Of a stretch of 64,000 nt of DNA, positions 1 through 64,000 are shown one piece after another (position 1 is the stretch's first letter; every line of letters begins with the position of its first letter). Source of the stretch: Cyanidioschyzon merolae (Eukaryota); assembly GCA_000091205.1 (NCBI GenBank), contig AP006486.2; one strand, given 5' to 3'. Under the pieces are notes generated by a model. That model was not told where the DNA came from. It saw only the letters and a list, made by a program, of their open reading frames with translations, and ran no database searches. The position numbers and the translations under genes were made by a program.

Positions 1-1996
1 CGAGGGCCTTCAAGGCGAGAGAGGCTACTTGAGCGTTCCTCGAATACCAGGTTACGTTATCATTTATGGCGTGTTGCGCCGGACTTTTTAGAAGATTTTT
101 GCCGTTAATGTGTTTTCGTACAGATGCCTTTACGGCTGTTTCAGAATGGTCATTCTGTGTCTACAGTTTTTCCATGCTGGAACTCCTCGTCCTCTGCTCG
201 GAAGGATGTTTTTCTTTATGGTCTGTGGTTTTTCTACTTTTCTTTTTTATTTGGCGGGGTGATGCGCATGTGGTCGTTATACTCCATATCCGTTTTTCCA
301 CTTGGAATTTTGATGCATTGAGTGTACGGTGGTGCTGCAGCTCACCCAGTATGCCTGGATATGCATCACGTGCTCCTTAAAAACCTTTTCGCCGCCTGCT
401 TCGTCGCGGGCACGCATACGAACAAAAGCACGCCTTTTTGATCCCTTCTGCGAACGCGCCGAAGAGCAACAGATCGATGAAGGCATTGCTCAGGTAGAGA
501 ACAACTGCTCGAAAAGAGATTAGTCGAAGAAAGATGTCGTGGATGAGAATCATTGCCTACTGACCGACGAGTGTCTACGTTATGTTTGAGAACGAGGAAC
601 TCGATCTCGACTTGATTGAACTGAGGAGGCTAGGCTAGCACGAACAGCAGCTCAACGCGAATCTAAGCTGCGCACTGCTTGGCCGCCTTTTTTTTTGAAG
701 TGGATTATCGAAGCGTAGCACACTAGAATGTGTGCGAAGGAGAAGCCGCGGCGTGTCCACCGACGAAAGATGAAGTATTGAAAAATCGGGTTCATTTGGC
801 AATTCGTAGGCGACCACACGAATGAATCGCTGTTGCAGCTGATGACTTTGTAATAATCTGGCTTCTCTCTTCTTTAAGAACTGCGGTTTATGCTTCTTAG
901 AGTAATGATATAAAGTGATAGGGTTTCTCCCGAAGCTAGTCCCGTCGAGTGCGAAATTGATGGTTTACTGTTCAAGGCGCCACGTTCTCTCGTGTTCGTG
1001 AGCTTCTTACCATTGCCTATACGTATCGCTTCACCAGGATTCGTAGGAACAGTGCTAAAACTGCTCATCCTGCGCCATCTTTTGTGGTACCTTGTTGGAG
1101 AACGTTTGGAGCGGAATGGATTCGCAGCAATGGGACAGCAATGTCGACGGTGTTTGAAAATTTCTGTTTTTTAAGGTGCACAGCATCCAGAATATGCATT
1201 TCAAGAAGATTGGGTCATCGATCCGCTGCCCATAATGAGACTTATGTGTAGATGTAAGACCTTTTCTCGCTAGCTAGCAGAGCCAGCATATTGTCTCAAC
1301 GCGGCCGTTCTCTAATCCACGGGATGCATTTTCTCCTTGAACACCCACGGGAGAAACAAACAAAAATAAAAAGGACGCCAATGCATGCGTTCGGGAATTC
1401 ACCACTCTGAGTATAAAGCAGCGGCTTCGCCAAACGAGCTTGAAACCTGCTCCTGTTGGTAGTGTATTCGTTCGTTGCACGCGCTCCAGGTTCGTGGACT
1501 GATATTCATTTCGTCGAAAATGCATTCGAAGCATCTGCCGATGTCAGCTGGCTGCTTGCATTCCTTGGTCATTTAACTGGGATTACGAGCACGTTCGCTT
1601 TTTTCTGCTGGAGGCTTCTCTAGGAACTTTTGTATCGCCGGGCCGGCAACGCCGGAGCTGTCGCCGACAATTACTCTGTTCTGTCATCAGATCGTGTGGT
1701 CGAAGGAGTTGTCCAGTGACGAAGCTGCACGACAAAGCTTTTCAGCAGATGCATCACCGTGAACCGCTCCGACAAACAAGCTATACGAAGACGCAGCTGC
1801 ATCATCTGAAGAAACCGAGATACCGCTTCCACACTAGGGACGTCAACATAGCCCGAACAGTCTCATGACGCGAGGATTCATCCTGGCGACCTTCGTCGCG
1901 ATCACTCGACTCCTTGCTCTGGATACCACTGAGCTGGGCGCTGTTCGAGTCGTGCTGCCCAAACCGAGAACAGGCACACGTAAGCACACGTGCGAT

Positions 1997-4600: not shown

Positions 4601-6283
4601 ATAAAGTCACACAGTAACGCCAGCTCAGTTCCAACTCGTCGATCCTACTGCGTTGCGGGCATTTTGCTATGTTCGGCCGTTTACGACACCGAAACTATGA
4701 TGAACGCGACCTGCGCCTAGCGCTGGAAGCGCGTCCCACGGCATCGTGGTACTGGTGAGGTGCATTCTCGACAGCGCGTTGAACAGCAGCACTTCTTTGA
4801 GTCGTTCAACTCAGGTTTGTTTCATCACTGCTGGAGCGTATAGCAGGAGATCGGCATTACGATGCAATGTAGTGTATATATTGTATACGATTTGAATGTA
4901 GGATATATGCTTTACGGAATTATGCACGGAGGACTACGTTCCTCCTTCAGGTCAGTCGTACCCCAGTACTCTGACAACTGGGGAACACTGAAAGGAGCAA
5001 TTATATGTGCACAGCGGTAAAAACCGATACTCTCACAACCTGCTTTGGTTCAGTGGTAGAAAACAACCCGTGGATCAACTTATAGGAAGCAAAAGCGACG
5101 ATTGTAGATAACACAAGCGTCACTGTGCCTCAATAGTTTGTTGGTATGGTACTGAAATCACTGGGATAACGTCACATTAAAAGTCCAATTTCATTCAGAG
5201 CCATCTTCCTCGGACGTCACTACGACAGAATTCCCCGAAAGACGCTATCGATATGAAGCACAGGGACATCGGTTTGTTCTGTCAGTCGATGAGACGTCTT
5301 TCCCACGAGACCGTCCCAGCATATATCGGTATTTGCCGAGAGGAAACCAATTGAATATAAGATCGAACTCGAATAGAAGGCTCATACCACAGCATTCCAT
5401 TTATCCAACCATTGATGACGCTTTCCACGTCTGACAACGTCCTTCTCTTGCACATCGTTGCCTTTCATCGTTCCCTTCGCATTCTTGTTTTTGCGAGTTC
5501 TATCTTCCGGAACTCCTTCTCCCTTGCTGAAAGGTCCTCACCTAAGTCCATTATGAGAGGCGTTCATTTTAAAGCAATAAAAAATCCGTGGGATAGAGAT
5601 GGACATGGAATTCGAGGATTCTGGAGGGCACCAATCGCCAGATTCGACAAAGAAACGAAAAAATTTTCTTCTCGCTGATCATCGAGTGAAGAGGAGCGAG
5701 TAACGAAGAAGAAGAGAGGAGATAGACGAGAATATTTGTTTGCCCGACGGAGCGACGACGAGACCATTGTGGCACAGAGGGCACGAGTTCTAGGAATTCT
5801 TGAATGCATGAATTCGACCAGCGGCAATATATGCAAGGAGTTCATGAACTGAGACTTCATGCCAGCCGACAAGATCAGGAGATGAGTGGGACTGAAGCCG
5901 CAACCCGAAAAGGTGACGCGACTGAATTCTATGGGACAGCCTCCCAGACTCCAATTGTACCTGGATAAACTGAAACCGATACCAGGTGGCCGCTCGAAAA
6001 AGGGAGACGTCTGCAGATCGATATTCGGTTACGCTACGAGATCGTGAAACGTTCTTCGGCTAACCGTACCCCTTGAAGGCTTTCTCTGAGCGTGTGTACA
6101 GTGCACTGTGACAGCCACCACGGTGCTGACGAGTGCACTAGGAAGCAGTTTACCAGCGAAGTTTTGGAGCAGAGCTTGACGTACGAGCTCACTCGAGAGC
6201 CAGCGTGCTCTGATTCGCTAGTGGCTCCTGGTGCACCTGGAGCGTAATATTGAATAGAGGCTTTTTAACGAAAGCGCCGGGTA

Positions 6284-7354: not shown

Positions 7355-8589
7355 GAGCAGAACGAACCGTCGCAGTGGTTATCGTTCCTTCTTGCAATCC
7401 GCAGCAGCGTACCATACGTGCTTGCTCGGCACGCCGGCGTCATAGATCTTGGCGCGAGGCATTGCAAGAGATGTAACTCGCTGCGTTGCTGGATGAGTAG
7501 AAGCATCACAAGCGACTCGCTTAGTCCACAAAGGGTATTGCGACAAGCGCGCAATCGATGAACGATCAAAGACGGTGCAAGCAGCGCATTTTCAGAAGCC
7601 AGCATTGTTTGCAACTGCGCATGTGGTGATCGAAATGCTGCTTTGTGCTCGTTGAGCATCGGGTTGCAGATAGGCCTGCTGAATACGAATGTACAGAGGG
7701 GTTATCAAAGTCGTGGAACTGGAAGCTCGGAAGCCAGCGATGCTGCTGCTGCTGCTGCTACGTATCTCTGGGTGCTGCAGACACACGCGGTGTCCAGCGA
7801 TCGATGAGGCGATCTGCATATCCTCCCCTCGTTTATAGAGTAGATTTGCGATGTGTGTAGCGCCAACGCAAATCTGTAAATTCGCTCTTACTGCAGATAC
7901 TCGGCAAAAGGGTCGCACACTCGCGCTAGAATGCAAGAGCTAAACCAACTCGAACAGGCGCGCCTCTGACCTGAAGTAACGAGGCATTACTACGGGAAGA
8001 CACTCATGAACAGCGAATTCGCATTCCGAAATGCGTGGCAAACGGATCGCTCTCGCCTAGCCCGTATCATGCACCGTACCTGCAAGCGACGTTCATGCTG
8101 GCTTTTCGTAAGGTGCTCTAACCGGCTACGAGCATAGCACTCTTCTCGTGCAGCAAAGCAGTGTAAGGTGTCCAGCGCGTTCGCTTCGAGTACCGATCGT
8201 GCGCATATGGACTATTCCTGACATGAAACTCCGAGCCCTAGGCCGCAGTTCCCAGATCAGCATTTGATATGCAAGACGCTCCGTGACAGCCGCCAGTATC
8301 ACTCTACGGATCACATATTGGATCAGAAGGGAACGCGCATGAGAGCGCGTGGTTCCCACGGCGCCGAAGCAGCATGCTCCGCCCGCACATCATGAGGTAT
8401 CTGTGCTGTGGAGCCGCCAGCACCCCGATGTCAGGGCAGCAGCGCGAACTCGCGGCTTTTGTGGAGTCTGCGCACTCCGGGACACACCTGCAGGGTCATG
8501 GACACGGCAACAACAGCCACCGTGTCTGGCGGAAAGCCACAACACCACTTTTTTGGTTTGTCGAGGAGAATTTCGTTTCCGGTTTACAG

Positions 8590-9110
8590 CAACTCGCAAT
8601 GAGCGTACAAGGAATGCGCACGATGTTTTGTCGCAATACCGATACTTGAGTTCCGAACGTCGTATACACACCATGAGTTGGGATGTACACTTCAGAGGGT
8701 CGAGATGGAAAAGTGCCAGAGGAGTCCTGAGGAAATAGCAAAGTACGGACCGCTGACGGAGGAGCAAATGGAAAGGAGGGCAAAAGTGCGAGGACTTCTT
8801 GCACTGGTGAGTACAACGAATGATCGCAAGAAATGGATGGAGTTTGTGAATTGAGATTTTAATGCCGCTATCAATATCCGGAGATGTGCGGTGCTGGAGA
8901 GAAGACCTCCAGAGTCGACAAGACAGAACTTTGTTGGACACCCTCTCAAAGTGGAACTGCATGAGAAAAAATTGGAACCAGTAGGAGGTGGCCGGTCGAA
9001 TAAGAGTGGGAGGCGTCTGCACGACAGTTGGTGGCTTCTTGCCTAGGGCGGGCTTCTCGCCACTACTGTGCACTGCCGGCAGCAACGTTTTTCTTTTGAA
9101 AGGCATTTGT
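8590..9110 (+). pseudogene. 3' fragment of the TnpB/Fanzor-like element family (copy b), frameshifted and stop-containing
   Basis: Nucleotide and translated homology to 12530-13060. It encodes RTSYTHHELGCTLQ..KYGPLTEEQMERRAKVRGLLALVSTTND..FNAAINIRR..LETRPP..GGRS, interrupted by stops. It ends with the family-conserved tail ctagggcggg...cagcaacgtttttcttttgaaaggcatttgtt. Confidence 0.5.
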
Positions 9111-9140
9111 TGCTCGTGGGTGTGAGCGCCCGCAAGTACC

Positions 9141-9803
9141 ATGCGGGATAAGCTTGGCTTTCTCACGCCGTTCGGAATGAGCAGCAGTACGGTGTATCGC
9201 CTGCGTCCACCAGCACCTCAGACGACTCGGTTGGTACTGAAACAAGCCGACATCACTCGCGAAGCAGTTGATGCGATCGTCAATGCTGCGAACGAGCGCA
9301 TGCTAGGAGGTGGTGGCGTTGACGGCGCCATCCACCGAGCTGCTGGTAAAGAGCTACTGGAGGCTTGTAAGCGGGTACCCGAAAAGCGTCCTGGTGTGCG
9401 GTGTCCTACTGGTGAAGCGGTTCCAATAAAGATCACATGGCCTGTTTCCGAGGGGAACTTGCCTCAGGTGCGCTATATCATAAACACGGTGGGACCGATT
9501 TACCAGAACGCGGAGAAGAGTGCGCCACTTTTGCGCTCGGCGTATCGTAACTCCCTTCTCACAGCAATCGAGCACAACTGTCGATCAATTGCTTTTCCGA
9601 CGATATCTTGCGGCGTGTATGGATATCCTCTTCGAGAGGCCGCTCGAGTTGCACTCGAGGCAGTACAAGACACGCTCGGGGAATCACCGCAGCAGTCGTT
9701 GCAAGAGGTGCGTTTCTGTCTATTCAGTGAGGACGCCTTGAAGACGTGGACACTGGCTGCTGAGCAGCTTCAACTGGAACGCGTGAAAGAAGGCGCTTCA
9801 TAG
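9141..9803 (+). CDS. Macro-domain protein (MacroD/YmdB-like ADP-ribose or O-acetyl-ADP-ribose hydrolase)
   Basis: VDAIVNAANERMLGGGGVDGAIHRAAG and CRSIAFPTISCGVYGYP motifs typical of macro domains. ATG at 9141, 220 aa. Confidence 0.8.
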   Translation: MRDKLGFLTPFGMSSSTVYRLRPPAPQTTRLVLKQADITREAVDAIVNAANERMLGGGGVDGAIHRAAGKELLEACKRVPEKRPGVRCPTGEAVPIKITWPVSEGNLPQVRYIINTVGPIYQNAEKSAPLLRSAYRNSLLTAIEHNCRSIAFPTISCGVYGYPLREAARVALEAVQDTLGESPQQSLQEVRFCLFSEDALKTWTLAAEQLQLERVKEGAS

Positions 9804-11716
9804 AAGTATGCTCCAGACATGCGTCTTTATGACAGCGCTATCGATATACCTTGAGTCGCTGCCTCAACCGATATGCGCCTGGCATGCTCAAGCACTTGCA
9901 TAGATGCCAAGTGCGGAACCTGGTGTTTTCGTTGCTCCAAGTCGACTTAGGGTTCCGGTGGAAGGTGCTCCTTCTGTTGAAAAGCGGACGTACACTAGTA
10001 GCAGAATTCAAATCAGTTCCTTATTCCAGCGTCCGTGCGGCATGCATAACAAGCAAAGGGAATAAACGTATATCCGTGCTTGGGAACACTACCGTACCTA
10101 GTTTGTCTACGATCAATAATACTAACGAAACACTTAATGACTAGTGTGACGCATACCTCATCCGCCCAAGCGTAAGCCGCAGCGAAAACTACGCGTGTGC
10201 TGGAGTCATCGAGGGGTTTCGTGCCGGGCCCCAGCGACCCGTTGTATTACAGGGCGGTACTGCTATGGGCAGTAGTGTCGGCACCAGCGACAGAGCCTAG
10301 CGCAGGGGATCACTCTATGTGAGTTTCCGATCTAGGACACCTGATTTCCGCTGCAGTGCGTCGGTGAGAACACGCATGTGCTAATGCGACGTCGGACACG
10401 TGTCCTTCATCGATCCGTGTAGCGTCTCGCGAGGTGCACGCATCGCGCTCAGTGAGTGCACCTGGCAGAACTGGCACTCAACTGACACGACGCGCATGCC
10501 GCCGCCGTTGAAGGGAAACGCAATCTTGATCTCTAGCGTGTAGCTCTAACGTAACAGTTGTATTTTCGTTAATTTCATAGCCAAGTATAGTTTTCAGTTC
10601 GATTGTGTTTCAACCCTCAAGTAAAAATATTCGATTGATTTGTTGCAGTATATAACAGAAGCGTTTAAAGAGGTTTCTTTTTCAAAAAAAAGACTGAAAA
10701 AGGAAAGTTATGGAAAAGCAAGTCGATGATCCTGGAGCTCAGTGTCGCTGGTTGCCAGAAAAACAAAAAAAAACAGTGCCGAGTCCAGAAGAAAAGGAAG
10801 AGAAAAAGAGGCAAAAGGGGGATGCCCTACGTCGAAGGCTGCAAGAAAGACGACTTTACGACGAGATGATGGTGGAAGCCTGCCTTCTTCATTATATCGG
10901 AGATCCGTAGCAGGCAAACTTGCGAGACGCTATCAGAAACCGTGTCGACTCATACTCCAAGAGTATTGTCAAGGCGTCTTCAGGACTGATGCATGTAGCA
11001 ATGGAGGTGTATCGCGAAGTAACGGACATCGACACAGTCAAGATTCCGGAAGATTTTTTCAACAAGACATTTATTCGCCACCTTATCTTTGGTACAGGGG
11101 AAACGTCGAAGAGAAATGAGCGAGTGCATGCCCTCCACTGAAATCACCCCGAATACCGCTTCGATCGTACTCGGTTCAGGGGAGACGGGCATATTTACAC
11201 CTCCGGTGCGATGAAGTACCTCACGATCGTGAAGAAGCACTTGACGATGAACCTGGAACGTTTCATGACACGCGCCGTGTTTGTGCTGTGCCCGGGCCTC
11301 TCTCGCAAAGGAATATGGGCGGTTATCAATGGCATCACGAACGATAGTAAGAGCGAAAGAGAGATCGAATTCATCGGCAAGAAGCCGTCACGCAGGAGCA
11401 CAAATGAGGATTCCGTCATCCGTGCGGTCATAGAAGAGCACCGTGCAGTCTTGGGGTTGGCGAATCAAACAGACAAGATATCAGAGTTGAAAAAAGGATA
11501 GGGAAAGATACTATCGCCTCATCCTGCGCTATTTCGTGTTTCTGGACCGAGGGCTATAACGCAAGGCAGAGGTGCAGCTGAGTGAGGGAAAAAAATGAAG
11601 AGTGGGAGAGACGGAAGGCTGTCCTAATGGAGAAGCGCTTCAACGTGGTTCCAATGTGGAAAGTCAAGTCACATTTTGTGACTATCGACTCCAGCGTCCT
11701 TTACGGCATCACCTAG

Positions 11717-12226
11717 GAGATCAGTCCGGAGTTCATTGTCAGCAGGGAGAACTTCACCCGCGAAAACCTGGAGACATACTGGAAGAATATCTTCAATTTC
11801 AAACGTCTGAGAGTGAGCAAGCAAAAGTTGTTCACTGGGATGGTCGAAACCGATGGAGTAGCCATGTGTGTACACTATCGGCGGTTGAAGAAAGACCGTC
11901 CAGTTCCGCCCTCGGCTGCGCCCGTGACGAAGGATGAAGAAAAGGAGGAGGCGGATCCTGCAACGCAGGAGGTAGAGAATAACGACCTTGTCGTTGATGC
12001 GGCGAAGCATGAAGATGAGAAGGAGGCGGGTCCTGAGACGCAGAAAGTGCAGAATAACGACCTTGTCGTTGACGCGGACCCTGGGAATACGAATATCATA
12101 ACCATCGCTGTACCCAAACGTGCGGAAGATAGCACTGACGGTAACTTACGTCAGAAAGACATGCGTCTGTTGAGACTCTCGAGAGCGAGATACTATCGCG
12201 AATCCGGTATAATGATTCTAAGGTAG
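11717..12226 (+). CDS. Fanzor/TnpB-like ORF segment carrying the RuvC-I motif and a 25-aa in-frame tandem duplication
   Basis: Frame-2 open stretch: ...[21 protein letters not shown]...[55 protein letters not shown]...[11 protein letters not shown]. The track ORF 11813..12226 starts at a GTG. Confidence 0.5.
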
Positions 12227-12250
12227 AAAATCGAGACGAAGAATGCAGGA

Positions 12251-12990
12251 ATGAAGGATCACTTTGAGGCTTTGAGCAAGGTGATGGGCCGCGGAGCGGA
12301 CTGTAAAGCTTTTCGGAAATTCATGAAAGTTCGCGTTGCTCATTGGGATGCCTTGTGGGAGGAGTATGCCAAGCCCCGGTGGGTTCGTTTGCGTGTGAAT
12401 CTGTATTGCGGGAAGCAGCGTGCATTCGCGAACTTTTTCAATCAGTTGAGTGCCCTGAAGGAGGATGAAAATCAGAGGCTCGTAGTAGCGTATGGAGCAG
12501 GGCGATGGAAGACCCAAAAAGGGACTACGCCAGCTCCAACGACAAGAACGTACAAGGAGTGCGCCGGGCGTTTCGTCACGATACCTGTAGATGAGCTCCG
12601 AACATCGTATACACACCATGAACTGGGGTGTACACTTCAGTGGGTCGAGATGGAAAAGCCTCAGCGGAGCCCCAAGGCTATAGCAAAGTACGGACCGCTG
12701 ACGGAAGAGCAAATGGAAAGTAGGGCGAAAGTTCGTGGATTGCTTGCACTAGTAAGTACAACGAATGACGGCAAGAAACGTATGGAGTTTGTGTACCGAG
12801 CTTTTAACGCCGCTATCAATACACGGAGATATGCGGTGCTGGAGACGAGACCTCCAGTGTTGACACGAGAGAACTTTGTGAGACAACCGTTTAAAGTGAA
12901 ACTATATGAGAAACAATTGGAAGCAGTAGTTGGTGGCCGATCCAAAAAACTGGGACGCGTCTGCACTTTAGTTGGAGAAGTTTTGTCTAC
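12251..12990 (+). CDS. Fanzor/TnpB-like ORF segment holding the RuvC-II/zinc-finger/RuvC-III region. The natural stop is mutated (TAC at 12988-12990 where the other copies have TAG), so the ORF reads through to 13201.
   Basis: KQRAFANFFNQLS, LVVAYGAGRWKTQKG, FVTIPVDELRTSYTHHELGCTL, GLLALVSTTNDGKKRMEFVYRAFNAAINTRRYAVLETRPP and GGRSKK motifs. Copies b and d terminate with TAG at the homologous position. Confidence 0.5.
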
Positions 12991-13152
12991 GGCGGGTCGC
13001 TCGCCATTACTGTACACTGGCGGCAGCGTTTTTCTTTTGAAAGGCGTTTGTTATCGCTGCCGTGGCCAAAAGAAACTTTTAAAAGCGATCACGAGGCTTG
13101 ACCAAGACCGCACAAAGGCGACGGCTTGTGAGCAACAACAGAGGTGCTCTTC

Positions 13153-16100
13153 ATGTCCAATGTCGAGCGGCACGAGGAGCCAAACGGAGCGCAGACGCTG
13201 AAGACCTGGCGAACGCTGGAGATCGCCGGGCTGGAGGTAAAGTTCCCCACAGAATTGGAACCGCACAAGCCGCAGTTGATCATTATGAACCAAGTGATAA
13301 GATGTTTGCAGCGGGCGCAAAACGCGTGCATAGAATCACCTACGGGAACGGGCAAGTCGTTGGCGTTACTCTGTTCGGCGCTGGCGTGGCTCGAAAAAGA
13401 GAAAGAGCGCTCAGAGCCCAGTCTATTAGCGGTTGCAAATCACGCTGATATGCACTCCGAATTTAAACCCGAAACTGAAGAACCCGCCGACGAGAAGCAA
13501 TCAATCCCGAAATTGCTGCCTGAGAGCCGCTCTGCGGCGGATGACTGCGGCGTTCAAGATGTCGACGACGACGACGATGATGATGACTTTACCAGCCGAC
13601 CGGCTCCGCGAGTATCGCAGTTGAAAAGCGCTTCACAGAGATGGCGTCAGCAAGGTGCTGTGGCTGGTACGCGGCATCGATATCCACTTTGTGGAAAGCA
13701 GGTCCCACTGAACCCGCTCTGCAGTGTCGCAGTGCACCTGGAGGGTACGAACCTTGCCGTACAGCAGAGGCACCCACGGATTTTCTTCTGTTCGCGTACG
13801 CACGCTCAACTCTCCCAGGTCATCGCAGAGATGCGCCGCACTCCATACGCTGGTAAGATGCGTTCCACACTGCTGGCGTCGCGGAAGCACTACTGCGTAC
13901 ATGAGGATATTCAGAGAGCGCCATCGACTCTGCAAGCGGAAGCTTGTCAGCGAGCCGTCCAGCTCAGCTTCATGGAGGAGGCCAAGTCTGCAGCTGATGC
14001 ATCCAGCACAGTAGCTGACCCTCTGGCAGGAATATCGCCCTGCTTCTATCATCACAGCGCCGCGGTGAGGCGAACAGCGTGTTCGGCCCCGCAGCCTTTT
14101 CAAATGGAAGATCTCGTGCAAGTCGGTCGCCACTGGCATGGTTGTCCGTATTTTGCATCTCGCTTTCTCGTCCATGGTGACATTCAAACGGAACCAAATC
14201 AAGACTCTGTTGAAGGATCAAGCGTCCCCGACGAACGCTCGCACACGGGAAGCGCTTCGTCTACGGATGGTGCCGTAAGCGCCCGGGCGACTTCATGTAC
14301 AACGCGGACACGAACGATCATAGAGCCTGCTGATATCATCTTTTCTCCATATTCATACCTTGTGGATCCGCTCATTCGTCGACGCATGGATATCGATATC
14401 ACCGGTGCCGTATTGATAATCGACGAAGCTCACAACATAGAAGAGGTGTGCTTAGAAGCGGCATCAGTAGACGTAAGTCTATCACAGGTGCAACGGGTTC
14501 TCCTGCAGCTAGATCACTATCTGGGGGTTCAGATGCCGGAAACAGAGCCCACCCTGGAGACACTGATGGTCCGGCGTCCGTCGTTGAATGGTACGGCGTT
14601 ACTTCGAGTGTTCCGCCACTGGTTGCAGGCCCTAGCGTCCTTCATTGAGACACGAATACCGCTGTTAGATGACATTCACGGCATTCCCGAAAGTCATCGT
14701 CCGACGTCTGGCCCATGCACTGCAGCGCAACGTCTTCATGCACAGGCCACGGTTTTCTGGCAAGACGGTGCTCTCTTGCATGAGTTAGAGGTAGGGTTTT
14801 TCCAAAATTTTGACTTTGAGCAGTGGAACTGGTCCATGGGCCAGTTAAACCGTTTTCTTGATCGCTGGCGTCAGAAACAGCAGCGCACGGTGCCGGCTTT
14901 GGCTTCAGGAATGGCGGCCTCGACGGGCTTTGGAACGGAAACAGCGACCGAAGAACATGCTGAACAGTCGGTGCAGGCGCGTCCCACGACGGGCGATGAG
15001 CGTGCAGAAACCGAGCCCCGCTTCGCGTCTCTGTGCGGTGAAGTGCTCCATCTGCTAGAACGCTTCCACATTGCGCTGCAGTTTATTTACGGCGGACAGA
15101 GCTCGAAGGGCGCAGCTGCACCTGCGGAGGCTTCCCTGCTGCACGCCACAGACTATAGACTTGTACTGAGACGCGAGATGCGCCAGGGCACCTACGGAGG
15201 AGTTGAATTCAAACTTGGACTTTGGTGCATGAATCCCGCAATTGCTTTTCGTCATCTGCGAGACAATGCGCGATCCATCGTGCTTACTTCGGGAACACTA
15301 TCGCCAATGGAATCTTTTCGAAGTGAACTTGCGACCGATTTTCTGTGTCAGACAGAATGCGACCACATTATCGATCCAGAGAAACACGTTCGAGTTTGCG
15401 TTGTGGGAACCAGCAGCTCCGGCGACCGTCTAGAGGGTTCCTACCGAACGAGCGCTACCTGGTCATATCAGGATGCCATCGGCGAAGCGCTTGCGCACTG
15501 CAGCGCACAGATTCCCGATGGTGTGCTCTGTTTCATGCCCTGCTATCGAGTCTTGGAGTCTATGTTGCAGCGCTGGAGCAGCACCGGCGCGATCGAGCGG
15601 ATTTGTGGTGCTAAGCGTCTCTTCATCGAGCGCTCTTCTGGACAAGTTATAACAGAATATGCGACCGAGACTGCTGGCGGATACAGACTTCAGCGTCGTG
15701 GTTGGCGCGACTCCTGCTTTACCCCTGCAAGGGAATATGGGACGGATGCATCTGTGGCGGCTCTCGGGGAACGGCCGAGCTCATTACGTGCTGCGTCTTC
15801 CAGTATCCTGTCTCGGGACCGGTCCAAGCGGAAACGACGCGGTGCTGGTCGAGCGTACACCTCCGCGTCAGCGTATGCAAACCGCGATGCTTTGCAGGTC
15901 TACTACGATGCGGTGGATGCAGCGCGGACTGAGACCACTGCGAGCGCACCGGTACCAGCTGCCAACGCGCGCTGTCGAATAACCGCTGATCACAAAAACG
16001 GGGCCATTATGCTGGCTGTTTGCCGGGGCAAGATCAGCGAAGGATTGAACTTTGCCGATCAGTACGGTCGCGCAGTCATTATGGTCGGTATTCCGTACCC

Positions 16101-20496: not shown

Positions 20497-20753
20497 ACAT
20501 TGTGCGTGCACTGCTAGAGGATATTATATGCGTGTCCAGCATTGTGCATGCACTGCTAGAGGATATTATATGCGTGTCCAGCTTTCTGCGTGCACTTCTA
20601 GAAGGATCATACATGCGTGTCCAGCTTTCTGCGTACAAATCTAGAAGGATCATACATGCGTGTCCAGCTTTCTGCGTACAAATCTAGAAGGATCATACAT
20701 GCGTGCTCAGCATTGTGCGTGCACTTCTAGAAGGATATTACATGCGTGTTCAG
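20497..20753. repeat. Minisatellite: about 6 tandem units of 42-43 bp in two subtypes
   Basis: Units cattgtgcgtgcactgctagaggatattatatgcgtgtccag (subtype A) and ctttctgcgtacaaatctagaaggatcatacatgcgtgtccag (subtype B), arranged A-A-B'-B-B-A'. Each unit contains two TGCGTG motifs. Confidence 0.8.
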
Positions 20754-28003: not shown

Positions 28004-28326
28004 CTTCCGGCGCTGATGGTGTCGTGTTCCCAGTAAGCAAGGTGAAAGGCAATGCAGTTCAGAGTTGAAACTTTTTCTCTACAATTCCGTCAGTGCAAAG
28101 CGAATGCTGTCCAGTGTTCAGCCTTGATGTTAGATATCCACACGCGTGACGCCTAGTCCTGATGGAGAGTCCACAGACAGTCAGAGCAGCGAACAATGTT
28201 TGCGATTTGCGAGGGTTCATGAGTACCCATGCCCAGACGCCTCCTAGTCATTTTTGACCGGTCGCCTGTTATCGGTTCCTGTGCTTATCCAGGTACGCTT
28301 CGGGCTTGAGAGGCTGTACCATAATG

Positions 28327-28551
28327 TTAGGTCGTCTTCAGCACCACACATCGTCTAATGTTGATAGCAGCGTTGAAGACTCGGTGGACAAAGTCCGTGC
28401 GTTTATTGCCGCGGCTTGGACTCATCCATTTAAGGATTGTTAGAACTCGTTCCTTCAGTGCGACTACAGTCTCGTCATCGTGCTGTCGGACAGGCGCCAA
28501 TTCCCGTGTATCTCCCCTTTTCTTGGTCCTCTTCGCGCGATGGTAGGCCAC
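28327..28551 (-). pseudogene. Short fragment of the TnpB/Fanzor-like family (copy c), holding the RuvC-III-like region and truncated by a stop
   Basis: Translates to ...ERVLTILKWMSPSRGNKRTDFVHRVFNAAINIRRCVVLKTT*, homologous to GLLALVSTTNDGKKRMEFVYRAFNAAINTRRYAVLETR of copy 1. Confidence 0.45.
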
Positions 28552-28843
28552 GAGAGGATTTTTTCATTTTTTGTCGAAACCGGGGATGACGGCTCTCCTG
28601 CATCCAGACGTCCATGTCTATACATTTCGCTTGGATTTTTAATTTCTCCAAATGAACGCACTTCGAAAACGTCTGCTATAAACTGCGACAAAGCATTTGA
28701 TGACATGCACCTGGATGCGGCGTAAAATTGAGGTGAAAGACAACAAGCAAAGTGTCCATAAAAGAAGGACAGCGTGTTTATCGTGCTGAACAGCTACGTT
28801 GCCTTTCCCAACCAGGATGATGAAACGTCTTCCACACGATCGC

Positions 28844-34184: not shown

Positions 34185-34715
34185 GTGCAGTGACATGGAC
34201 TCGGTGCCGATGCGCGAACCGCAGCGGATGACAGCAGCGTCGCTCTATGACATGGCATTGTGCTTCGTCTCTGGGTCCAGCGTTGGCGAAGTCAAGTCGG
34301 CGACGATTTCGTCGAGAACGTGACGGATGTTGTGCTTGTGTGCAAGCTTCAGATGTACTGGGCCTCGTGGTTACCAGCAGAACGCAGAGAGCGCTTGTAT
34401 GTTGGCGCTCCACAGCGCCGAGTGGATGAATCCGAAGGCTTTCGGGTGACGCAGCGGCGCCACTGGCGGCCGCCTTGAGCGTCATCGGCAGTAGGTACAC
34501 AACGCGGTGGGTGTCGTTGCAGCGCGCGAGGTTTTCTGATGGTAAACGCAGCACATAGTATGCGCCCTGGAGACTTGCTGGTGACCTGAAGCACCGCGTT
34601 GGCGATGTGGATGATCAAGAGTGGATAGACCATGCTTCAGCCGCGAGCAGCTGGTCCGTGTTTGATCCGCTCTGTATCGTTCAAACTCCATTGTTCTAGA
34701 CCGGTGGATGGCGAA

Positions 34716-41068: not shown

Positions 41069-42136
41069 CTAAAAGAGCGGACGATATCCACTGGCAAGCA
41101 ATTCGATACCAGTGTCGTTCGGCCTTCATGATAACCGTTGGAAAGGAGGATACGATTTCCGTATCTTCCAACGTTTGCCTTCTATGCCGAAGTGCCCGTG
41201 TGCCGGACGAGTATGCTGGGCCAGTGCTGCATGCTGCCCCCAGGGGTGGGTGCAGTTGCGCCACCTGAACAACTCGCCCGCAATGCAGTTGATTCTCGGA
41301 TTCAGGGCAGTTCGGGTGTGTCTCGAAGTCGCCCAGGTTGCAGTTATCTCCTAGTACACCGCATCGCGCTGCCGCATGCAGTAGGTCTGTCTGCGCAGTT
41401 TGCAGGCGCCCAGAATGATGTAGAGTGCCGACCCCGTGTCGGATGAACGACGCCTCGAGCCGACATGCCCATTGGTATGGCAACGCTGCTCTGTCTTTGT
41501 ATTGCATCCGCACTTGCGGTATAAGCGCTACAACGGGTGCAGCACTGCATGCACTCGGCGCGAGAGATACCATAACAAACGACCAGTGTATCCTAAAGAA
41601 AGTATGGGCCATGGAACCTGAAGGTACAGTGCGTCATGATGAATACGTTCCCGAATGCCTATATCCCTCATTTGATCTTGGGTATACGTTCAATGTAAAC
41701 CTTTAGTCGAACAAAAAATGGAAACGCTGCATAGGTGAATGAATAACGCAACATCCGCTCAAACCGTGCTACTGGCCGGCCAGTCTCCTCCGGAACGCTC
41801 ACATCATTCTATCAAGAGAATAACGATTGTGAACACACACTCGCCATCGACGGGCTTCCAGTCTGGCTCAGCATGGTCCCGTTACCATAACCCAATCGTT
41901 GCGTCTGTGCTAGTTTTCAACTTTCACTTGTTCAGCGCGGTAGTTTTCTCAAAAAAGTGCGCCGTTTCCGCTACGCCGAGCAGTTGCGTCACTCTCAGAG
42001 AAAAACGGTCGCAAGTGTAGGCGAGGCGTTTGTAACTGGACCACGTGTCCGGGGAGTGTCTGGCACCTGGTCTGTGGGGCGACTCCCTCAAAAGCTACAG
42101 CGGAGTCAGCATCAAGACTGGTTGCGTGTCTCGAGG

Positions 42137-50607: not shown

Positions 50608-53600
50608 CTTGAGGGCGTCGAATCCCCAATCACATCATGCAGTTAGGTATTTGGCTGTTTTGTGCGTCGGTATTCTCGGTTCACGCATCATGGAGCATGC
50701 GGGTGACTGGAGGCTCGTGATACATTCGCATGTGTGCGCATGAAGACGTGTGGGCATTCGGACTTGCAGGATCGACGCAGACTCGCGTGCGTTGGTGGTA
50801 GCGGCTTTCATGGGATGCAGCATCATCGTATGGTGCCAAGCGAGCCATCTTCGTTTACATGAAGCGATCGTTGCATGGATGGATCGACAGGTGTCTGATA
50901 TTGGAAGCGGGCGACGAGCGGGCGCTCAATGTCCCGCAGGACTCCCGCTCGATGTCGATCTGTAGCTGGTGGATATCTCGCAGCCGCTAGCGTCCTGGGA
51001 GCTACAGACAGCGAGTATGGAGCTCGTGATCGGCTCGAGGGCAGGCGCGCCTGCCTCCGGTCGTGTCTAGCGGTCGCTGGGCGTATTCCATTCAAGTTCA
51101 GCGGAAACAGTGCCTCGGGGGTTGTTCTCCAAAGCTCTCTGAGTAAAAAAATCATCCATGGTCGTGCGTTCTTGATCGAATGGAATGGTGTTTGCACTGA
51201 TTCGTGATCTATGAAAGGCGTGTCCAGAAAACAGGACACGTCACAGGGCTGTGAACGGTTCCCACGTGAAAATACACAAGTTTCCGGGTATTGGAAAGTG
51301 CTGCGCAGACAGTCACCGTGATTCGTGAACGTCTCCAGAGAAGCATCTCGTTCGTGTGTCCGGGGCGAGAAGCTGCTTGGGCGCGCGACAGCATTTACGC
51401 TGACGCATGCGTGGCCAGAAGCGTCGATGTTCTTGGCTGAAATGCTCGGCACGAGTCGGGCTCAAGTCTGGCTCCCTCGATGCCAGGTCGAACGTTATGC
51501 GCAGAACGGGAAAATCTGGAACACCTGGACCAGCACGCCACGTTTGCCTTTCTTGAGGGTATTCAACGAAGGCGTGCATCCTGTAACTTAGAGAATGCCT
51601 GACGGCTTTCTTTACGATGCCATTGCTAGCTTGCGAATATCTGATCGAACTTGTACAAGTAAGGCATTCCATCGTCGGCAAATGGATGACCCATCGTTTG
51701 CGGCGTCCGCATACTCCATATCGTTCGCTCAGAACGGAACCAGTATAAATCTATTCACAGGATTGTGTGCTCGTCCATCGGAGCCAATCCATTGCTTTTC
51801 TAAGAACTACCACGGAATAAGCCATATGATGTGAAGTTTCCATATAGTAGAGACGACCAGTGATGCAGATACGAATGGACAAGTTAAGAAACACGCTAGT
51901 AGTCGCACTGGTCGCACGTTGAGCAACACACGATCGATTCCGTACTGAAACGCGAACAGTTTGGGCACGACAGACGGGTATTCATCTCGCTCGATGAGAT
52001 TCTATTCCGCAGAAATCGTACATCTGCGTGTGGATACTCAACGAGCGGCAATGCAATGTTTGCAAAGAAGACACAGGCGAGCTTCGCGACTCTACCAGGC
52101 CAAGCGGCGATGTCGACGGGTGTTCGCATACAAACCTTCAAACAAGAGGAGCGTTTCGCACTCGATGCGTCACCTAAGCAGTCTTCGTGCATTCGCCTTC
52201 CCACATTCTTCCGTCCTGCTCTGAGATAACGTCGCTTTCCATCAATCTACACGGTAACGGAGATCGTAGCTGAGACTGTTGGTAAGCGAAACTTGATGCC
52301 AGCCTATGCTCAGTGGTTTCATCCATCCGGGCGCGTCTTCTCTATCGTCAAACGCCATTTTTATGTTCGACGATCAATAGACGAGTCATTCGAATCTGGG
52401 ACCCCAAACTTCTTCGACAAGTCGTTCTCTAGCTCCACCAGCCCGCAACTGCGCAGTTGCTTCTCTGCTCGTGCGTGCTTGGGGGTGAAAGGCCAGCTCT
52501 GGTCCACGGGCGTGCTCCCGATGGAGGAAATGACGAAAAAATGCGAGGAGCTGTAGATATACACCCAGAAGAGGCGAGTCTCGGTGGCAAAGTCCACCCA
52601 GTGCGCACGGGCCGTGGCAAAAACGAACGGATATACCGTATACCGACCGCGTTCCTGCCAAACCGCCAAGTAAACGAGAAGAAGAAGAAACCTCCGCATC
52701 ATGAAGAGAAAGATCCTCCTAAAGACAGTACGAGCATTGAGAGAGGGCAAAAAGTGTGAGGCCAGAGGGATTCGTCAAATACCTCTGTCGAGGACGCTCT
52801 ACGAAAATCCATCGACGGGGAACGTTTCCCGGAAATGTGATACAGCAAGGCACCAGTGATCGTAGAGTCTTGTCCTGGAGGAATGCTCACGCAGCGCCTC
52901 TCGACTTGAAGCACCTGGTAATGCCATTGTCCATGCGCGTTCTGAACGCCGGGCTTCTAGCTGCCTGCGCTCCTCTGGATTTTTTCAATCAAACCGTTGT
53001 GCAATTTCTGATGCTGGGGATAGATATTGTGAGACGGACTGAGACGCTCAGGGCTCGATATGATCCCGAGTTGGACGTGGCAGACGCCACGGGACAAACC
53101 AGCGAATAGTAGGTCGGCACCAGGACCCGTGCCAATGCCCCGAACCCTGTCCTGGACAGAGGCGATGCTGCATACGCTTCATTCAGAGAGTACATGCGGG
53201 TCCAGATTTTTCGACCAGACGATCTTTGCTACAAGGACCGGAGAGCATGCTGGCGTCCTCAACAACCGATTCCGTTGCTCCATATCACGAGGCGGTCACT
53301 CGCCAACCTCTTCATTGAGATGAAGAACAACAGCACCGATGCGTCGCGTCGTTTGCTCGAGACCTCTGACGCGGCACGTTTCGGAGAGCGCAACAGCTTC
53401 ACGTTTGTCCCTTTGATGGACGGGTACAACGCGTGCAGGGATCGGTGCTGCACGATGCCCATTGATGGCTTCGGAGCGAGATTCACACATCTCGAGCGCA
53501 AACTGGCGCTGAAGCGGGCATCCAGGGAGAGCGTAAAGCAGCGACACATCCACGATGTGGTGTCCGGAAGCATGACCGAGCGTCAGCCTGCCACGAAATC

Positions 53601-54841
53601 GAAAGCGAGTAACTTGCCGAGCTGGGACTCTACCAGAAACCATGTGCACAAGTCCTTTTTTCTGCGCAGAGACTTGAACGCCTCAGTGAACGCCAGAAAC
53701 TATTTTGTGCTTCCGGATTGATCATCGAGTTTGCATTTTTGGCGGTCATCATGTCATTCACCAGGGTGGTACTTGGATGAAACGCCGAACCCCTTCGATG
53801 AACTCATCGGTCGCCACGAGCGACAGACTTCCATCCCGGCCTGGAACGAGGTACGCGTACATGATGGAACGGCACGGCGAACGCTGGAAATCCAGCACAC
53901 CCGGATCTCCGTCTCTGGACACTGGAAAAGGCCCCGCATGCCAATGGGTGCACTTTCATGGCGCTCCACGATTCACCATTACCGAGTACGTAAGTAAAGT
54001 ACTGACATCCCACTTTACTTTTTTCGAAATCCTCCGCTGCACGAAAAACATTGCTTGTCATATGAAACCTCCAACGGCTTCTGCCTCTGATGCCCATATG
54101 CCAGGAGTTTCTCTGCTTGCTCGATGATTTTCCTCTAGCTTGCCGACATCATACCTCCATAGATGCAATCCTGTGTCGAAATCAACACAGTCGCCGCATC
54201 CCATGTCATCAAGCGGGTGCGTCTTGTCGCTGCACGACGCTGTGCTGGCGGTACGCCTCGAACACATACGACCCGACTCTGGTTTGCAAGGCGCTGGCGG
54301 CCGTCGCCAGGTCCACTCGTGCATTGCCAGTCGCCAACAGAGACAGCAAGTTCTCGTTCGGAGCGCAAAGCTCGATCGGCGACCTCTGCTGGCTATCATA
54401 TCAGATGCTGAGGACACAAAGTCTAGTGCGCATGCCCTTCATCGGAAGTATTCCGCACGCTATAATGACCGGCATGCTCCCAGCATCTGCCATGGACCTC
54501 GCAAGCATCGAGAGCGCTCCGGGAGCCGTTATCGGGTTTTTGACTTTTCCGAAGCGCACTTCGCGCTTGTATCATTCCAACGATGTACCTGCGTGTGTCC
54601 TACCTGTAGGTAGCACAGCCTATGTTTCGCAGCTGCAGTTCCTTACCGAGCAGCACCCAAGTTCCAGGAGACGTTGCAGGCAAAACAAAGGGTGAGATCG
54701 CGGGCGCTCCAGGGGCAGCGCGTCTGCGATCGAGTCGACAATCGTCAGGGAGCGGCTCGGTGTCGGCATACGCCCTGATGCAAACACGCTTTTCGTTTGC
54801 TTTCGGGAACTGTGGACGTTTTCATCTACACTGTGTCGACG

Positions 54842-57523: not shown

Positions 57524-57560
57524 CCCAGTGAGCCACGCTCTCCCCTGCACCGCACACCAA

Positions 57561-58350
57561 CAACGAACGCCTCAAAAGACAAAAGTTGCTGCAGGCAGTG
57601 TACAGTAGTGCGGAGAAACCCGCCCTAGACAACTCGTCGCCAACTGACTTGCAGACGCCTCCTGGTCTTTTCGGACCGGCCACCTACAACTGATTCCATC
57701 TTTTTCTCATATAATTCAACTTTTAGAAGTTGTCCCACAAAGTTCGCTCGTGTCGACGCTGGAGGTCTCGTCTCCAGCATCGCACTTTTCCTTATATGGA
57801 TTGCTGCGTTACAGCCTCGGTTCATAAACTCCATTCGTTTATTGCCGCTGGTGGAAGTCACCATTTTAAGGAGTCCTTGAAGTCGTGCCTTCCGTTCCAT
57901 TTCATTTGCTGTCACCTCACCGTACTTTTCTATATCTTCTAGGATTTGCTGGCTCTTCCCCGTCTCGGCCGTCTGAATTGTACGCCCCAGTTCATCCCAT
58001 AATATTTTAAAATCAAGGCACTGCTTTATGCATTTAGCTGAGGACATTCCCGGAGGAGATAGCACTTGCGCAGAAAGGACGACAGGTGCCCCGGTAGTGT
58101 TGTATGCTGAGCGCTTCAGCGATTCGCTCCATGCATCGATCGATACGTTTCACGATACAAAACACTCCCTCAATGGGGTAGACCAACGGAAACCACTAAA
58201 GAATGAAAACCAGCTCTATCCAGACAGAATCGGCAAGATCTCGAACGCAACAGGAATGATGAAATGCCAGTTTGTCCCGTAGAAGGACGTCGTTAGACGT
58301 CAGGGAAAAGGGACCCTTAATTCGACAACGTGGTTGAACCTGTTGTACGA
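57561..58350 (-). pseudogene. Diverged, stop-interrupted 3' portion of the TnpB/Fanzor-like family (copy d)
   Basis: Minus-strand translation ...FYGTN..PVAFEILPILSG*..FSGFRWSTPLRECF..*..SSAKCIKQC..KYGEVTANEMERKARLQGLLKMVTSTSGNKRMEFMNRGCNAAIHIRK..LETRPP..GGRSEKTRRRLQVSWRRVV*. A conserved tail follows the TAG (57561-57624). Confidence 0.5.
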
Positions 58351-61688: not shown

Positions 61689-64000
61689 TTCCAGTCAAAA
61701 CTTCAACGGTGATAGCGCAGGCTAAAAGCGCTCGTTCCCTTTGCAGAGGCCTCGCTGAGCGTCCGAACGCCAAGGTCAAGCGCTCGAGCGGGGATGGGGT
61801 ACGCTTCAAGCGCCGCGTCTGCGCTGCTCGTTTCATAAAAGGGTCAGTTGGATACCGGCAGGTTTCTGCTGCCACAGCCGAATACGTCACGATGTGCCTG
61901 AAACCTGTACGGACTCCAGGAAGGAAACGAGTGCTTTTTAGGATTAGAAATTAACTGCGGAGCTTTTGAATTGCGACAAAAACAGCACGACCAGGAAAAG
62001 CAGTTGACGTTGGGTTGCACGCTCGAACGTGTACAACCCGCGGACGATTCTGCTGAAGATGCGAACTGGGAACCGAATATCGAAGAATTATCTTTATTAT
62101 TAGGAAATGTTCAGGTTTCGCGAGATCAAGGCTAAGACAGCGTACCAGATTTACGCGTTGAGTTGATCTCACGAGTTGCCGGCAGCAGAGGTGTCTGAAT
62201 GAAGCAGCAACCTAGCGGTACGTTGGCCCGCGCTCCAGTGGGAACCCGGGACCCTGCAGCAGGCTGCGGACGCTTCCTCATGGTCATCGTGAACGTTTCT
62301 ACACGCTGAACGCTTTGAACAAGTGCATCGACGGTTGGTCGGAACACTTTGCGTCACGTCTGGTGGACGGCACCTCGCTATGCGCACAACGCTGCAACAG
62401 CGCAGTGTGTGCCAGCGTGTCGCTCACCAAAGATGCCTGGTAGTTGACGGCAGTGCTGCGTTTTGGCAGTGTCGTGCATCCTCGAAAGAAGAAGCGAAAG
62501 CGACAAACGTCCCTGATTCATGGCAGATGCTGTGGTATGGAATGGAGCCGGATGCAAGTTGCGACTGAACCGGCGATTCTATGCTCCTTTGACGTAAAGC
62601 AGAGCGTGTTGGAACACCTTTGCCAGAACGGACTTTCGGTTTGTGTTTTGTTTCACACAGGTATTCAAGAAATGGGTTGTATCCTGTAGATTGGAGAAAG
62701 GTCGCGCAAAGAGATTGTATGAAGTCATTGCGAGCTTGTGAAAAGAAACAGTTTTTCTCATACGAGTCAGTCGGTCCACGGTCAGCCGGCAGATGCGCTG
62801 CCCGGCCTCGTTGTCCTGGTTCTAAGCGCCGCGTACTCAAAACAGAAGTTATTCAACCCCATTTGCTTCGCTGTTTGGTCGACAATCCATTACAATCTGT
62901 CCGTTCCTTGAGGATTACTACTACTGGAGAATCAACAGAATAGGCCGTGTTCGCACCGCTGAAGCAAATGTTAATAAAAGAGCACCGATGGGCAAAGGAA
63001 GTGAAAGCATGCTTCACTGGGAGGTCATCGCGTGCTGACCAACATGCCGTTGATTTCGTACGAGGACACGAACGCTTCTGCTTTCAGGTACCAGGGGCGC
63101 GCTTCTCAATCGATCATGCTTGATCCGGGGAGAAATTGCGGACGTGCACATGGGTCATTAAAATGAGGTACAGCGCTGTACGTAAACAGAACACGAGCGG
63201 ATTCGACGATTCCATCAGACCGAGTGGCAATCGAATGTCGTGGTCGTGTACAAACTGACAAGCAGACACGATAGGTTCACACTTGATCCTTCATCGATGG
63301 AGGCTTCGTGAGCTCGCCTCCCTGAATTCTCTCCCCTGCTCGCAGACAATGTCACTTTACATCATTCAAAAGTGGTCACGGATTATGCATCCGGTATTTA
63401 CGAGGATCACCTCTTCATGCCATTGTATTTATCCTGTTCCATTCAGTCGGAGGTGTTATTTCTGTCGTTCAACGCCATTTTTACGCTCAAGGATCAATGA
63501 ACGAGTCGTTCGCACCAGAAACACTGAGGGATGTAGGACGCCATTACGCATAGCAAAGCCTATGATTCGAAGAAGGCTCGCCTTGCTTTCATCTTTTCAA
63601 CGCACCTCGTCAGGCAAATATTTCTCGTAGTTCCGCATACAGGGCTATCTACCGCCCGTATTCCTCAGGAATCTTTCGATCTAGCTTTCGTGCGACAGCA
63701 CAACTGATGCTCAGGAGAGAAGATGCAGTACAGGATGATCGCGTGATCAGAGATTTGCGCGCTTGCTTTTCAGAATACCTGGACTAGTTGCCGCACCACC
63801 TAGGCGGTCGGAGCATTTACCGCGCAGGTGCCGAGAAGCACCAAATCATCCGCCTATACCAAAAGCATACGCGGGTCATTCACCGGAGCTTCATGAAGCG
63901 CGCCTTGAGCGCGTTGTCGCTTCTCTCTACTGACCGAGAAAAGCGGGGTCGCATGAAAGGGATTCTCGGGATGTACGTGGAGGCAACAAAAACTGATTCT

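Follow-up and report, generated by a model that had tools for sequence, protein, structure and literature searches.

The four segments singled out in a 64,000-nucleotide stretch of Cyanidioschyzon merolae DNA (NCBI GenBank assembly GCA_000091205.1, contig AP006486.2; this whole stretch is called the window below) are most probably one near-full-length and three fragmentary copies of the transposable element CMe-1A, which encodes a Fanzor1 protein, and all of them are inactivated. We give this reading a probability of about 0.93. As such, the finding is already known: the family was described in 2013 (Bao & Jurka 2013, Mobile DNA 4:12, PMC3627910), its copies here are decayed and unremarkable, and the re-identification of dead copies is in itself of little importance. 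In that paper, CMe-1A is the sole Fanzor1 family given for C. merolae, with ~150 copies that are each ~80% identical to a 3169-bp consensus, no terminal inverted repeats (TIRs), target-site duplications (TSDs) that were not determinable, and a 734-aa protein encoded by one exon; the first 635 bp of the consensus are a separate element, TE-N2_CMe, with ~70 copies. It is a TIR-less, apparently non-autonomous transposable element with a single open reading frame (ORF). What we add is modest and partly tested: a TNB domain without cysteines across the clade, modular 5' ends, extra divergent relics, and the position of the copies relative to host start codons. The portions of the 2013 paper that were searched mention neither alternative 5' modules, nor missing cysteines, nor adjacency to start codons.

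Family identity was established by aligning the published consensus DNA and protein (supplement of PMC3627910) to the window. Consensus positions 662-3169 align to 10458-13046 at 85-88% nucleotide identity over ~2.5 kb (blastn), and the conceptual protein of this copy (copy 1) is 71-79% identical to the CMe-1 protein. The fragments at 8601-9104 and 57995-57572 match the consensus at 80-87%, so that they and copy 1 lie at or above the level of about 80% identity, and an older relic is found at 28700-28234. The CMe-1A similarities in the window have BLAST E-values of 1e-107 to 0, which excludes chance similarity. A hidden Markov model (HMM) of the family, scanned against the six-frame translation of the window as the preliminary description had proposed, matched all four places (copy 1 at E 9e-117 and 4.5e-54, the remaining three at 4e-27, 2.4e-6 and 1.2e-8). 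The same relationships are visible as DNA repeats within the window: 12546-12845 resembles 8601-8900, both 12769-13027 and 8826-9099 resemble 57572-57847 on the opposite strand, and 28332-28468 resembles 57768-57904. The match of copy 1 to the consensus begins at position 662, and another 5' module stands in the place of TE-N2_CMe. Since the core is the same and the 5' module differs, copy 1 belongs to a sister subfamily of CMe-1A. It has in common with the published element the family, the lack of TIRs and TSDs and the single exon; it differs by its class C module, by a duplicated 75-bp unit and by being a pseudogene.

The preliminary description, made from the letters alone, had placed copy 1 at 10710-13060, with three related fragments, and had stressed the high local density of four copies in 64 kb. 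The fragments are real. The range covers the coding part of an element that is longer (Table 1), and the count of four is right for CMe-1A pieces, to which the HMM scan adds further Fanzor-derived pieces. The density is indeed high: 150 copies in a genome of ~16.5 Mb would place ~0.6 in a window of this size.

Table 1. CMe-1A copies, parts of copy 1, and other Fanzor1-like or TE-N2_CMe sequences in the window
Feature	Position	Strand	Remarks
Copy 1, whole element	~9996 to ~13063	+	near-full-length CMe-1A core with other 5' module
Copy 1, class C 5' module, non-coding	9996..10457	+	77% identity to positions 220-665 of the L062 5' module
Copy 1, 5' untranslated part of the core common to CMe-1 copies	10458..10709	+	consensus 662-905 (blastn)
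Copy 1, Fanzor1 pseudogene	10710..12990	+	consensus ORF 906-3110, 734 aa
Copy 1, two tandem 75-bp units (25-aa repeat) directly before RuvC-I	11928..12077	+	from window repeats and consensus alignment
Copy 1, 3' tail and right end	12991..13063	+	hairpin-capable terminus GCGTTTTTCTTTTGAAAGGCGT, then a semi-conserved G/T-rich stretch of ~13 nt
Copy 2, 3'-terminal fragment	8601..9122	+	8601-9104 = consensus 2665-3168, 86.5%
Copy 3, old relic with internal deletion	28234..28700	-	28700-28560 = consensus ~832-969 (71%), then C-terminal region 28416-28234
Copy 4, 3'-terminal fragment	57551..57995	-	57995-57572 = consensus 2737-3163, 80%
Solo TE-N2_CMe element	41072..41708	-	74% to consensus 5-636
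TE-N2_CMe fragment	16577-16802	+	from consensus alignment
Divergent Fanzor1-like relic, internally deleted	52741..53733	+	27-30% aa identity to CMe-1
Divergent Fanzor1-like relic	5020..6005	+	C-terminal region 44% to CMe-1 residues 640-721
N-terminal fragment, divergent Fanzor1-like copy	5..220	-	HMM E 1.2e-10; at window edge
N-terminal fragment, divergent Fanzor1-like copy	63510..63982	+	HMM E 1.4e-7; continues past window end
Weaker Fanzor1-like relative	36095-36552	-	from six-frame protein and HMM scan

All window copies are dead, as had been suspected from their decayed look. Read in the consensus frame, copy 1 carries four stops (TAG at 10908, TGA at 11139, TAG at 11714 and TAG at 12224), of which only that at 11714 had gone unnoticed, and five 1-bp indels that shift the frame (10737, 10764, 11496, 11586 and 12949). 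The frame change previously located between 11501 and 11717 is real and corresponds to the +1 insertions at 11496 and 11586; of the three further indels, that at 12949 is a deletion. Short introns had been offered as a partial cause of the stops. We rejected this, because at each in-frame stop the consensus, which has a single exon, reads a sense codon. At the catalytic positions, copy 1 reads DADPGNTN at RuvC-I (DPG at 12077-12085) and keeps the alternative RuvC-II glutamate (12593-12595), and its RuvC-III aspartate has become alanine (12800-12802, in YRAFNAAIN, 12794-12820). The RuvC-III aspartate is replaced by glycine in copy 4 (NRGCNAA), and in copy 2 a TGA at 8852 stands immediately ahead of its position. 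The peptide motifs quoted in the preliminary description all occur in the ORFs of 10710-13201, and the RuvC-III-like block reads FNAAINTRR there. The N-terminus is rich in lysine and arginine (KKRQK in copy 1, KKRK...KTKKQKR in the consensus) and, judged from sequence alone, resembles a nuclear localization signal (NLS). Upstream of its ATG, copy 1 has a non-coding region of ~700 bp, in which the class C module is truncated at the 5' side by ~220 bp relative to the longest class C copies, according to alignments of that class. The 75-bp unit before RuvC-I occurs in 1 to 6 tandem copies across family members (loci L002-L081, consensus 2117-2196).

The placement of these elements in Fanzor1, a group of eukaryotic TnpB homologues, is supported by CMe-1A identity, by profile comparison and by fold, and the earlier label of a TnpB/Fanzor-like nuclease was right. 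Full-length relatives with 25-57% identity were collected in two rounds of searching, the first with the consensus protein and the second with a profile; 43 of them make up the profile of the family. Run against the whole PDB, this profile matched PpFz1 of Parasitella parasitica (E 2.3e-19), SpuFz1 of Spizellomyces punctatus (2.5e-13) and GtFz1 of Guillardia theta (4e-5), and beyond Fanzor1 chains the next matches had only E ~1; a shallower profile gave 4e-6. The alignments pair the DPG, DEFRTS and NRD motifs of the family with the equivalent motifs of the solved Fanzor1 proteins. The fold was modelled with AlphaFold2 for a relative 43% identical to CMe-1 (P0188), and not for the window pseudogene. 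With the 43-sequence alignment the model had a predicted local distance difference test score (pLDDT) of 87 and a predicted template-modelling score (pTM) of 0.84; an AlphaFold2 run on a 10-sequence alignment was unusable (pLDDT 48). The best seven Foldseek matches of the model in the PDB were all Fanzor1 (E 3e-17 to 3e-14, template-modelling score (TM) 0.53-0.70), followed by Cas12o and Cas12f at E 1e-4 or weaker.

The motifs tell the same story. RuvC-I reads GADPGNTN in the consensus, the canonical RuvC-II glutamate is lost (VVAYGAG), and an alternative glutamate, near-invariant in the family, lies 34 residues further on in DEFRTS; RuvC-III reads NRDFNAAINIR in the family, a motif that copies 1, 2 and 4 of the window no longer have intact. 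DPG, the loss of the RuvC-II glutamate and the alternative glutamate distinguish Fanzors from most TnpBs (Jiang et al. 2023, PMC10530073; Yoon et al. 2023, PMC10711439). A prokaryotic TnpB was considered and rejected, since DPG and the alternative glutamate are present and the 3.1-kb element has no second ORF.

Several observations weigh against our reading. Pfam gave no relevant match on the window ORFs and eight close homologues. The CxxC...CxxC zinc ribbon is absent, between DEFRTS and NRD (window 12596-12800), from CMe-1 and 42 of the 43 aligned relatives. Among 80 long copies from metagenomes, only one or two have an ORF of more than 700 aa. The others concern a putative guide RNA, for which no analysis gave support, although copies only ~12% diverged make this a weak test: RNAalifold on 32 independent 3' ends gave -4 kcal/mol and almost no covariation; folding of the final 203 nt of copy 1 is no more stable than that of shuffled sequences (z = -1.2); divergence at third or synonymous positions shows no clear drop at the 3' end of the ORF; and Rfam found no match in the window.

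The missing zinc ribbon is a departure from the 2013 definition of the Fanzor motifs, in which a C4 zinc finger separates the TS pair from the RD motif (PMC3627910). At the two CxxC sites CMe-1 reads THHELGC and GLLALVSTT. The preliminary description had taken TSYTHHELGC for a zinc-finger remnant; the motif is there, and because the four cysteines are absent clade-wide it reflects a trait of the clade and not decay of copy 1. Relatives that lack these cysteines retain the catalytic D/E/D positions, and five of the 43 relatives match PF07282 (Cas12f1-like TNB), so the TNB domain is still homologous despite their loss. The finger is found in "many" TnpBs and Fanzors, not all (Yoon et al. 2023, PMC10711439), and the authors of the family file CMe-1 as Fanzor1; membership is therefore kept on homology. 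It had also been proposed that the lack of a significant TnpB HMM match should count as refutation. Pfam is silent, yet the Fanzor1 identity holds, so that such a rule would have misled.

Searched with phmmer against the PDB, the 316-aa ORF at 12251-13201 gave no match. It has 183 relatives, mostly unnamed hot-spring metagenome proteins, some of which carry the Pfam domain DUF8286. This domain (PF26935), the sole label that Pfam puts on the family, is also assigned to positions 5323-5976 of a locus from a related strain (L001; ~window 11571-12226) and to the proteins P0017, P0023, P0052 and others, and it occurs together with PF07282 in P0211. DUF8286 appears to be a conserved Fanzor1 segment around the FTGxIETDG and DPG motifs. 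Standard Pfam scans thus miss the CMe-1 clade of Fanzor1 or file part of it as DUF8286, and annotation pipelines will call its members hypothetical.

How does CMe-1 compare with characterized systems? The solved Fanzor1 ribonucleoproteins (SpuFz1, 8GKH and 9CEU-9CEZ; PpFz1, 9CF0-9CF3; GtFz1, 9CER-9CET) share with the CMe-1 clade the overall fold (at the TM given above) and the RuvC signature DPG, DE[FY][KR]TS, NRD. The clade differs from them by a sequence identity of only 12-15% and by non-cysteine residues in place of the TNB zinc ribbon, and CMe-1 has in addition a variable 25-aa tandem repeat before RuvC-I and a 3' untranslated region (UTR) of only ~60-75 nt. With bacterial TnpB of IS200/IS605 and IS607 elements (e.g. 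ISDra2), CMe-1 shares a homologous RuvC nuclease near the right end of the element and a stop codon only a short way from that end. D-hydrophobic-G and the canonical RuvC-II glutamate are typical of TnpB (PMC10711439), whereas CMe-1 has DPG and the alternative glutamate; unlike TnpB, CMe-1 is eukaryotic, has an NLS-like N-terminus and has no TnpA partner.

These comparisons allow a mechanism to be sketched by analogy with Fanzor1 proteins studied experimentally (Jiang et al. 2023, PMC10530073) and with the solved guide-RNA complexes of SpuFz1, PpFz1 and GtFz1. The RNA that active Fanzors employ originates at the 3' end and continues past the right end (PMC10530073). The stop codon of CMe-1 lies only ~60-75 nt from the right end, and any guide RNA would therefore overlap the ORF, as in bacterial TnpB. 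In an intact copy, a guide (omega or f) RNA would form by folding of a transcript that spans the last part of the ORF and the right end, and its final ~20 nt would derive from host DNA past that end. Having reached the nucleus by means of its K/R-rich N-terminus, the protein would bind this RNA; its single RuvC site might then cut matching DNA flanked by a target-adjacent motif, and the cuts might bias whether the element is retained or spreads, an effect demonstrated with bacterial TnpB. The window copies are capable of none of these steps.

All four CMe-1A pieces of the window are co-oriented with the next host gene and end shortly before its start. The right end of copy 1 (~13063) precedes the ATG of a helicase gene at 13153, that of copy 2 (~9122) the ATG of a macro-domain gene at 9141, and that of copy 4 (~57551) an ORF start at ~57523-57550, while the relic copy 3 ends at 28234, ahead of an ORF start at 28003. 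We examined this arrangement in a set of 30 independent 3' ends, any two of which share under 96% identity and whose 900-nt downstream flanks lack similarity. In 16 of the 30, the first ATG of a co-oriented ORF is no more than 120 bp from the right end, and in six of these it is 2-19 bp away (the loci listed are L005, L017, L018, L027, L028, L031, L036, L038, L044, L048, L062, L067 and L073). Random intergenic positions of the same loci give an expectation of 6.6% (binomial P ~1e-10). The gene models behind these figures are crude, namely ORFs of at least 150 aa taken from the first ATG, with distances measured from a GGCGTT anchor. The downstream genes are unrelated housekeeping genes, encoding an RsmB-type methyltransferase, KTI12, glycerol-3-phosphate dehydrogenase, phosphoglucomutase, a bicarbonate transporter and a WD40 protein. 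The start codon of KTI12 is validated by a Pfam match that includes the protein from residue 1 onward.

If the adjacency holds, it reflects either a strong insertion preference or the retention of copies whose 3' end gives the host gene a promoter or leader. Put together, the observations would fit a scenario in which CMe-1 is placed, or selectively kept, with its right end 2-120 bp from the start codon of a co-oriented housekeeping gene; the host leader, and probably the transcription start site, would lie inside the element, and any guide RNA that extends past the right end would carry the host 5' UTR as its guide. We hold this scenario tentatively and think it somewhat unlikely. Should it be true, it would amount, together with the clade without zinc ribbon, the interchangeable 5' modules and the 5'-truncated copies, to an undescribed mode of Fanzor targeting or spreading in a thermoacidophilic alga. 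Start-codon adjacency, if it extends to the whole genome, bears on how Fanzor elements choose their sites or survive in them.

A narrower proposal attributes a function to the relics themselves: retained 3' ends would act as promoter or 5' leader of the downstream host gene, which would explain why 3' fragments persist. The excess of close starts, the mutually unrelated downstream flanks with their housekeeping genes (KTI12 with its validated start among them) and the agreement of all four window copies speak for it. Against it, an insertion preference gives the same pattern without exaptation, the gene models are crude, the 3' tail is no more conserved than the rest of the element, and copy 2 diverges by 2.2% between strains. 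We consider it doubtful, and slightly more so than the scenario above.

The ends of the elements also raise the question of how they moved. We aligned 41 copies upstream of the ATG (loci L002-L081). The common core begins near consensus ~645, and at least four unrelated 5' modules occur ahead of it: TE-N2_CMe in direct orientation, as in the published consensus, and three others that we name B, C and D. The 5' cut points of module C vary from copy to copy (99, 211, 220, 427, 460, 610 and 620). Fragments almost always retain the 3' end, with starts at consensus 1847, 2239, 2665, 2737, 2833, 3078 and 3086, and at that end similarity extends through GAAAGGCGTT before fading across ~13 G/T-rich bases (TGTTGTYGSTG..). 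We found no TSDs around the window copies.

A similar situation is found in Chlamydomonas reinhardtii, where CRe-1, 2 and 3 are borne by Helitron2 elements. Like CMe-1, they carry Fanzor1 as a single gene in many copies, do without classical TIRs, possess a 3' hairpin and bear marks of one-ended transposition. Unlike them, CMe-1 has no Helitron termini or RepHel partner that we could identify (asymmetric terminal inverted repeats (ATIRs) and RepHel were not searched for genome-wide); under the same limit, the hairpin-capable 3' terminus is the only Helitron2 feature seen. The Fanzor1 genes of Chlamydomonas have 5-10 exons, that of CMe-1 has one.

These features invite the view that mobility used a one-ended replicative mechanism that starts or ends at a fixed 3' end, either Helitron-like rolling-circle replication or retroposition by a reverse transcriptase acting in trans, and was neither cut-and-paste nor driven by Fanzor. 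The lack of TIRs and TSDs, the constancy of the 3' ends and variability of the 5' break points in fragments and in module C, the alternative 5' modules on one core, the hairpin-capable 3' terminus with its G/T-rich, microsatellite-like end, and the association of Fanzor1 with Helitron2 in Chlamydomonas all agree with it. It is nevertheless improbable in our judgement. No reverse-transcriptase gene and no RepHel were seen (the latter was not sought genome-wide), nor were Helitron termini (5' T with ATIR, 3' CTRR) or a poly(A) tail; the fragment sample is small and drawn from loci picked by long protein matches; and a deletion bias in a compact genome, together with selection for gene-proximal 3' ends, could yield the same pattern.

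The family bears traces of past selection. Mismatches of the copies to the consensus amount to 0.118, 0.094 and 0.189 at codon positions 1, 2 and 3, a skew that is strongest in the RuvC half and is evidence of purifying selection on the protein in the past. Diversification of the family under protein-level selection thus came before the death of its single copies, in agreement with a remark in the 2013 paper (PMC3627910). The present state is different. The related strain (L001) is 99% identical to the window over 13 kb and has the same broken copy 1. Between the two strains, divergence is 0.3-0.9% in host genes, 1.4% in intergenic DNA and 1.6-2.2% in the Fanzor relics; since the relics exceed the intergenic rate, they evolve without constraint. 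We sought an empty orthologous site, and all ten orthologous loci fetched (L001 and nine more) carry the same broken copy 1.

Two side observations concern exchange among copies. The differences between the L001 strain and the window are clustered, as noted at 8000-9250 and 10750-11500, with 14 in 10750-11000 and only 2 in 10000-10750, which may reflect gene conversion among copies. One of the ten orthologous loci, from a metagenome strain (L089), has instead recombined within the copy: its positions 6475-7671, compared with window 11923-13050, are 95% identical up to the 75-bp repeats and then continue as an 82%-identical copy. The downstream genes of this locus (His_Phos_2, Metallophos) also differ from those of the window, and the switch suggests ectopic recombination between two Fanzor copies.

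Might the locus still be functional, through a spliced full-length Fanzor or through the 316-aa ORF as a domesticated truncated protein? That ORF is uninterrupted, and its counterpart in a related strain (P0001) is 97% identical. It has no RuvC-I, however, carries the alanine in place of the RuvC-III aspartate, and passes the family stop only through the 1-bp deletion at 12949. The strain differences in it fall at codon positions 1, 2 and 3 in numbers of 6, 1 and 5, and its divergence of 1.6% is equal to or above the intergenic rate. Splicing fits poorly with a consensus gene of one exon and with the few introns of C. merolae. We regard a functional locus as very improbable. Weaker still, and practically negligible, is the idea that a normal multigene family of the host, without relation to TnpB or Fanzor, accounts for the repeats. 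It could draw on the silence of Pfam on window ORFs and close homologues and on the filing of part of the protein as DUF8286 only; it is refuted by the PDB profile and Foldseek searches that match Fanzor1 only, and the dispersed, truncated and stop-rich copies and the publication as a transposable element (PMC3627910) also speak against it.

The decay of the window copies leaves the interest of the family to its intact members. The host lives in hot acid, the zinc ribbon is missing, and the RuvC half has been under purifying selection; for these reasons an intact member would be worth testing as a nuclease, and by analogy with other Fanzors may be a reasonable candidate for a compact, heat-tolerant RNA-guided enzyme.

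The setting of these copies is the nuclear DNA of C. merolae, a thermoacidophilic unicellular red alga, as follows from two exact matches of predicted proteins: the macro-domain protein (9141-9803) and a DnaJ protein (6284-7354) are identical in every residue to C. merolae 10D XP_005535483.1 and XP_005535482.1, respectively. These matches also reject a trypanosomatid origin, which the long intronless ORFs might suggest. The alga grows at ~40-55 °C and low pH, and its genome is compact and nearly intron-free. Beyond the CMe-1A copies, six-frame protein and HMM scans found five more pieces of divergent Fanzor1-like elements in the window. The relic at 52741-53733 retains the RD.NA..N motif of RuvC-III (FFLRRDLNASVNARN) and has lost the alternative glutamate (PIDGFGARF). 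Copy 4 is part of an older relic that reaches ~58712, and 58712-57813 (-) is homologous to 5020-6005 (+). These divergent relics represent one or more families, at 27-44% aa identity to CMe-1, outside the single C. merolae family of 2013.

Two other repeats were noted. A 1,003-bp direct repeat occupies 34715-35717 and 40062-41064 (99.2% identity, spacing 5,347 bp); a Methyltransf_28 gene (38352-39737, minus strand) sits between the two copies, the second of which adjoins the solo TE-N2_CMe element. Finally, ~5 units of a 43-bp tandem repeat (AGGATCATACATGCGTGTCCAGCTTTCTGCGTACAAATCTAGA) are found at 20560-20774.

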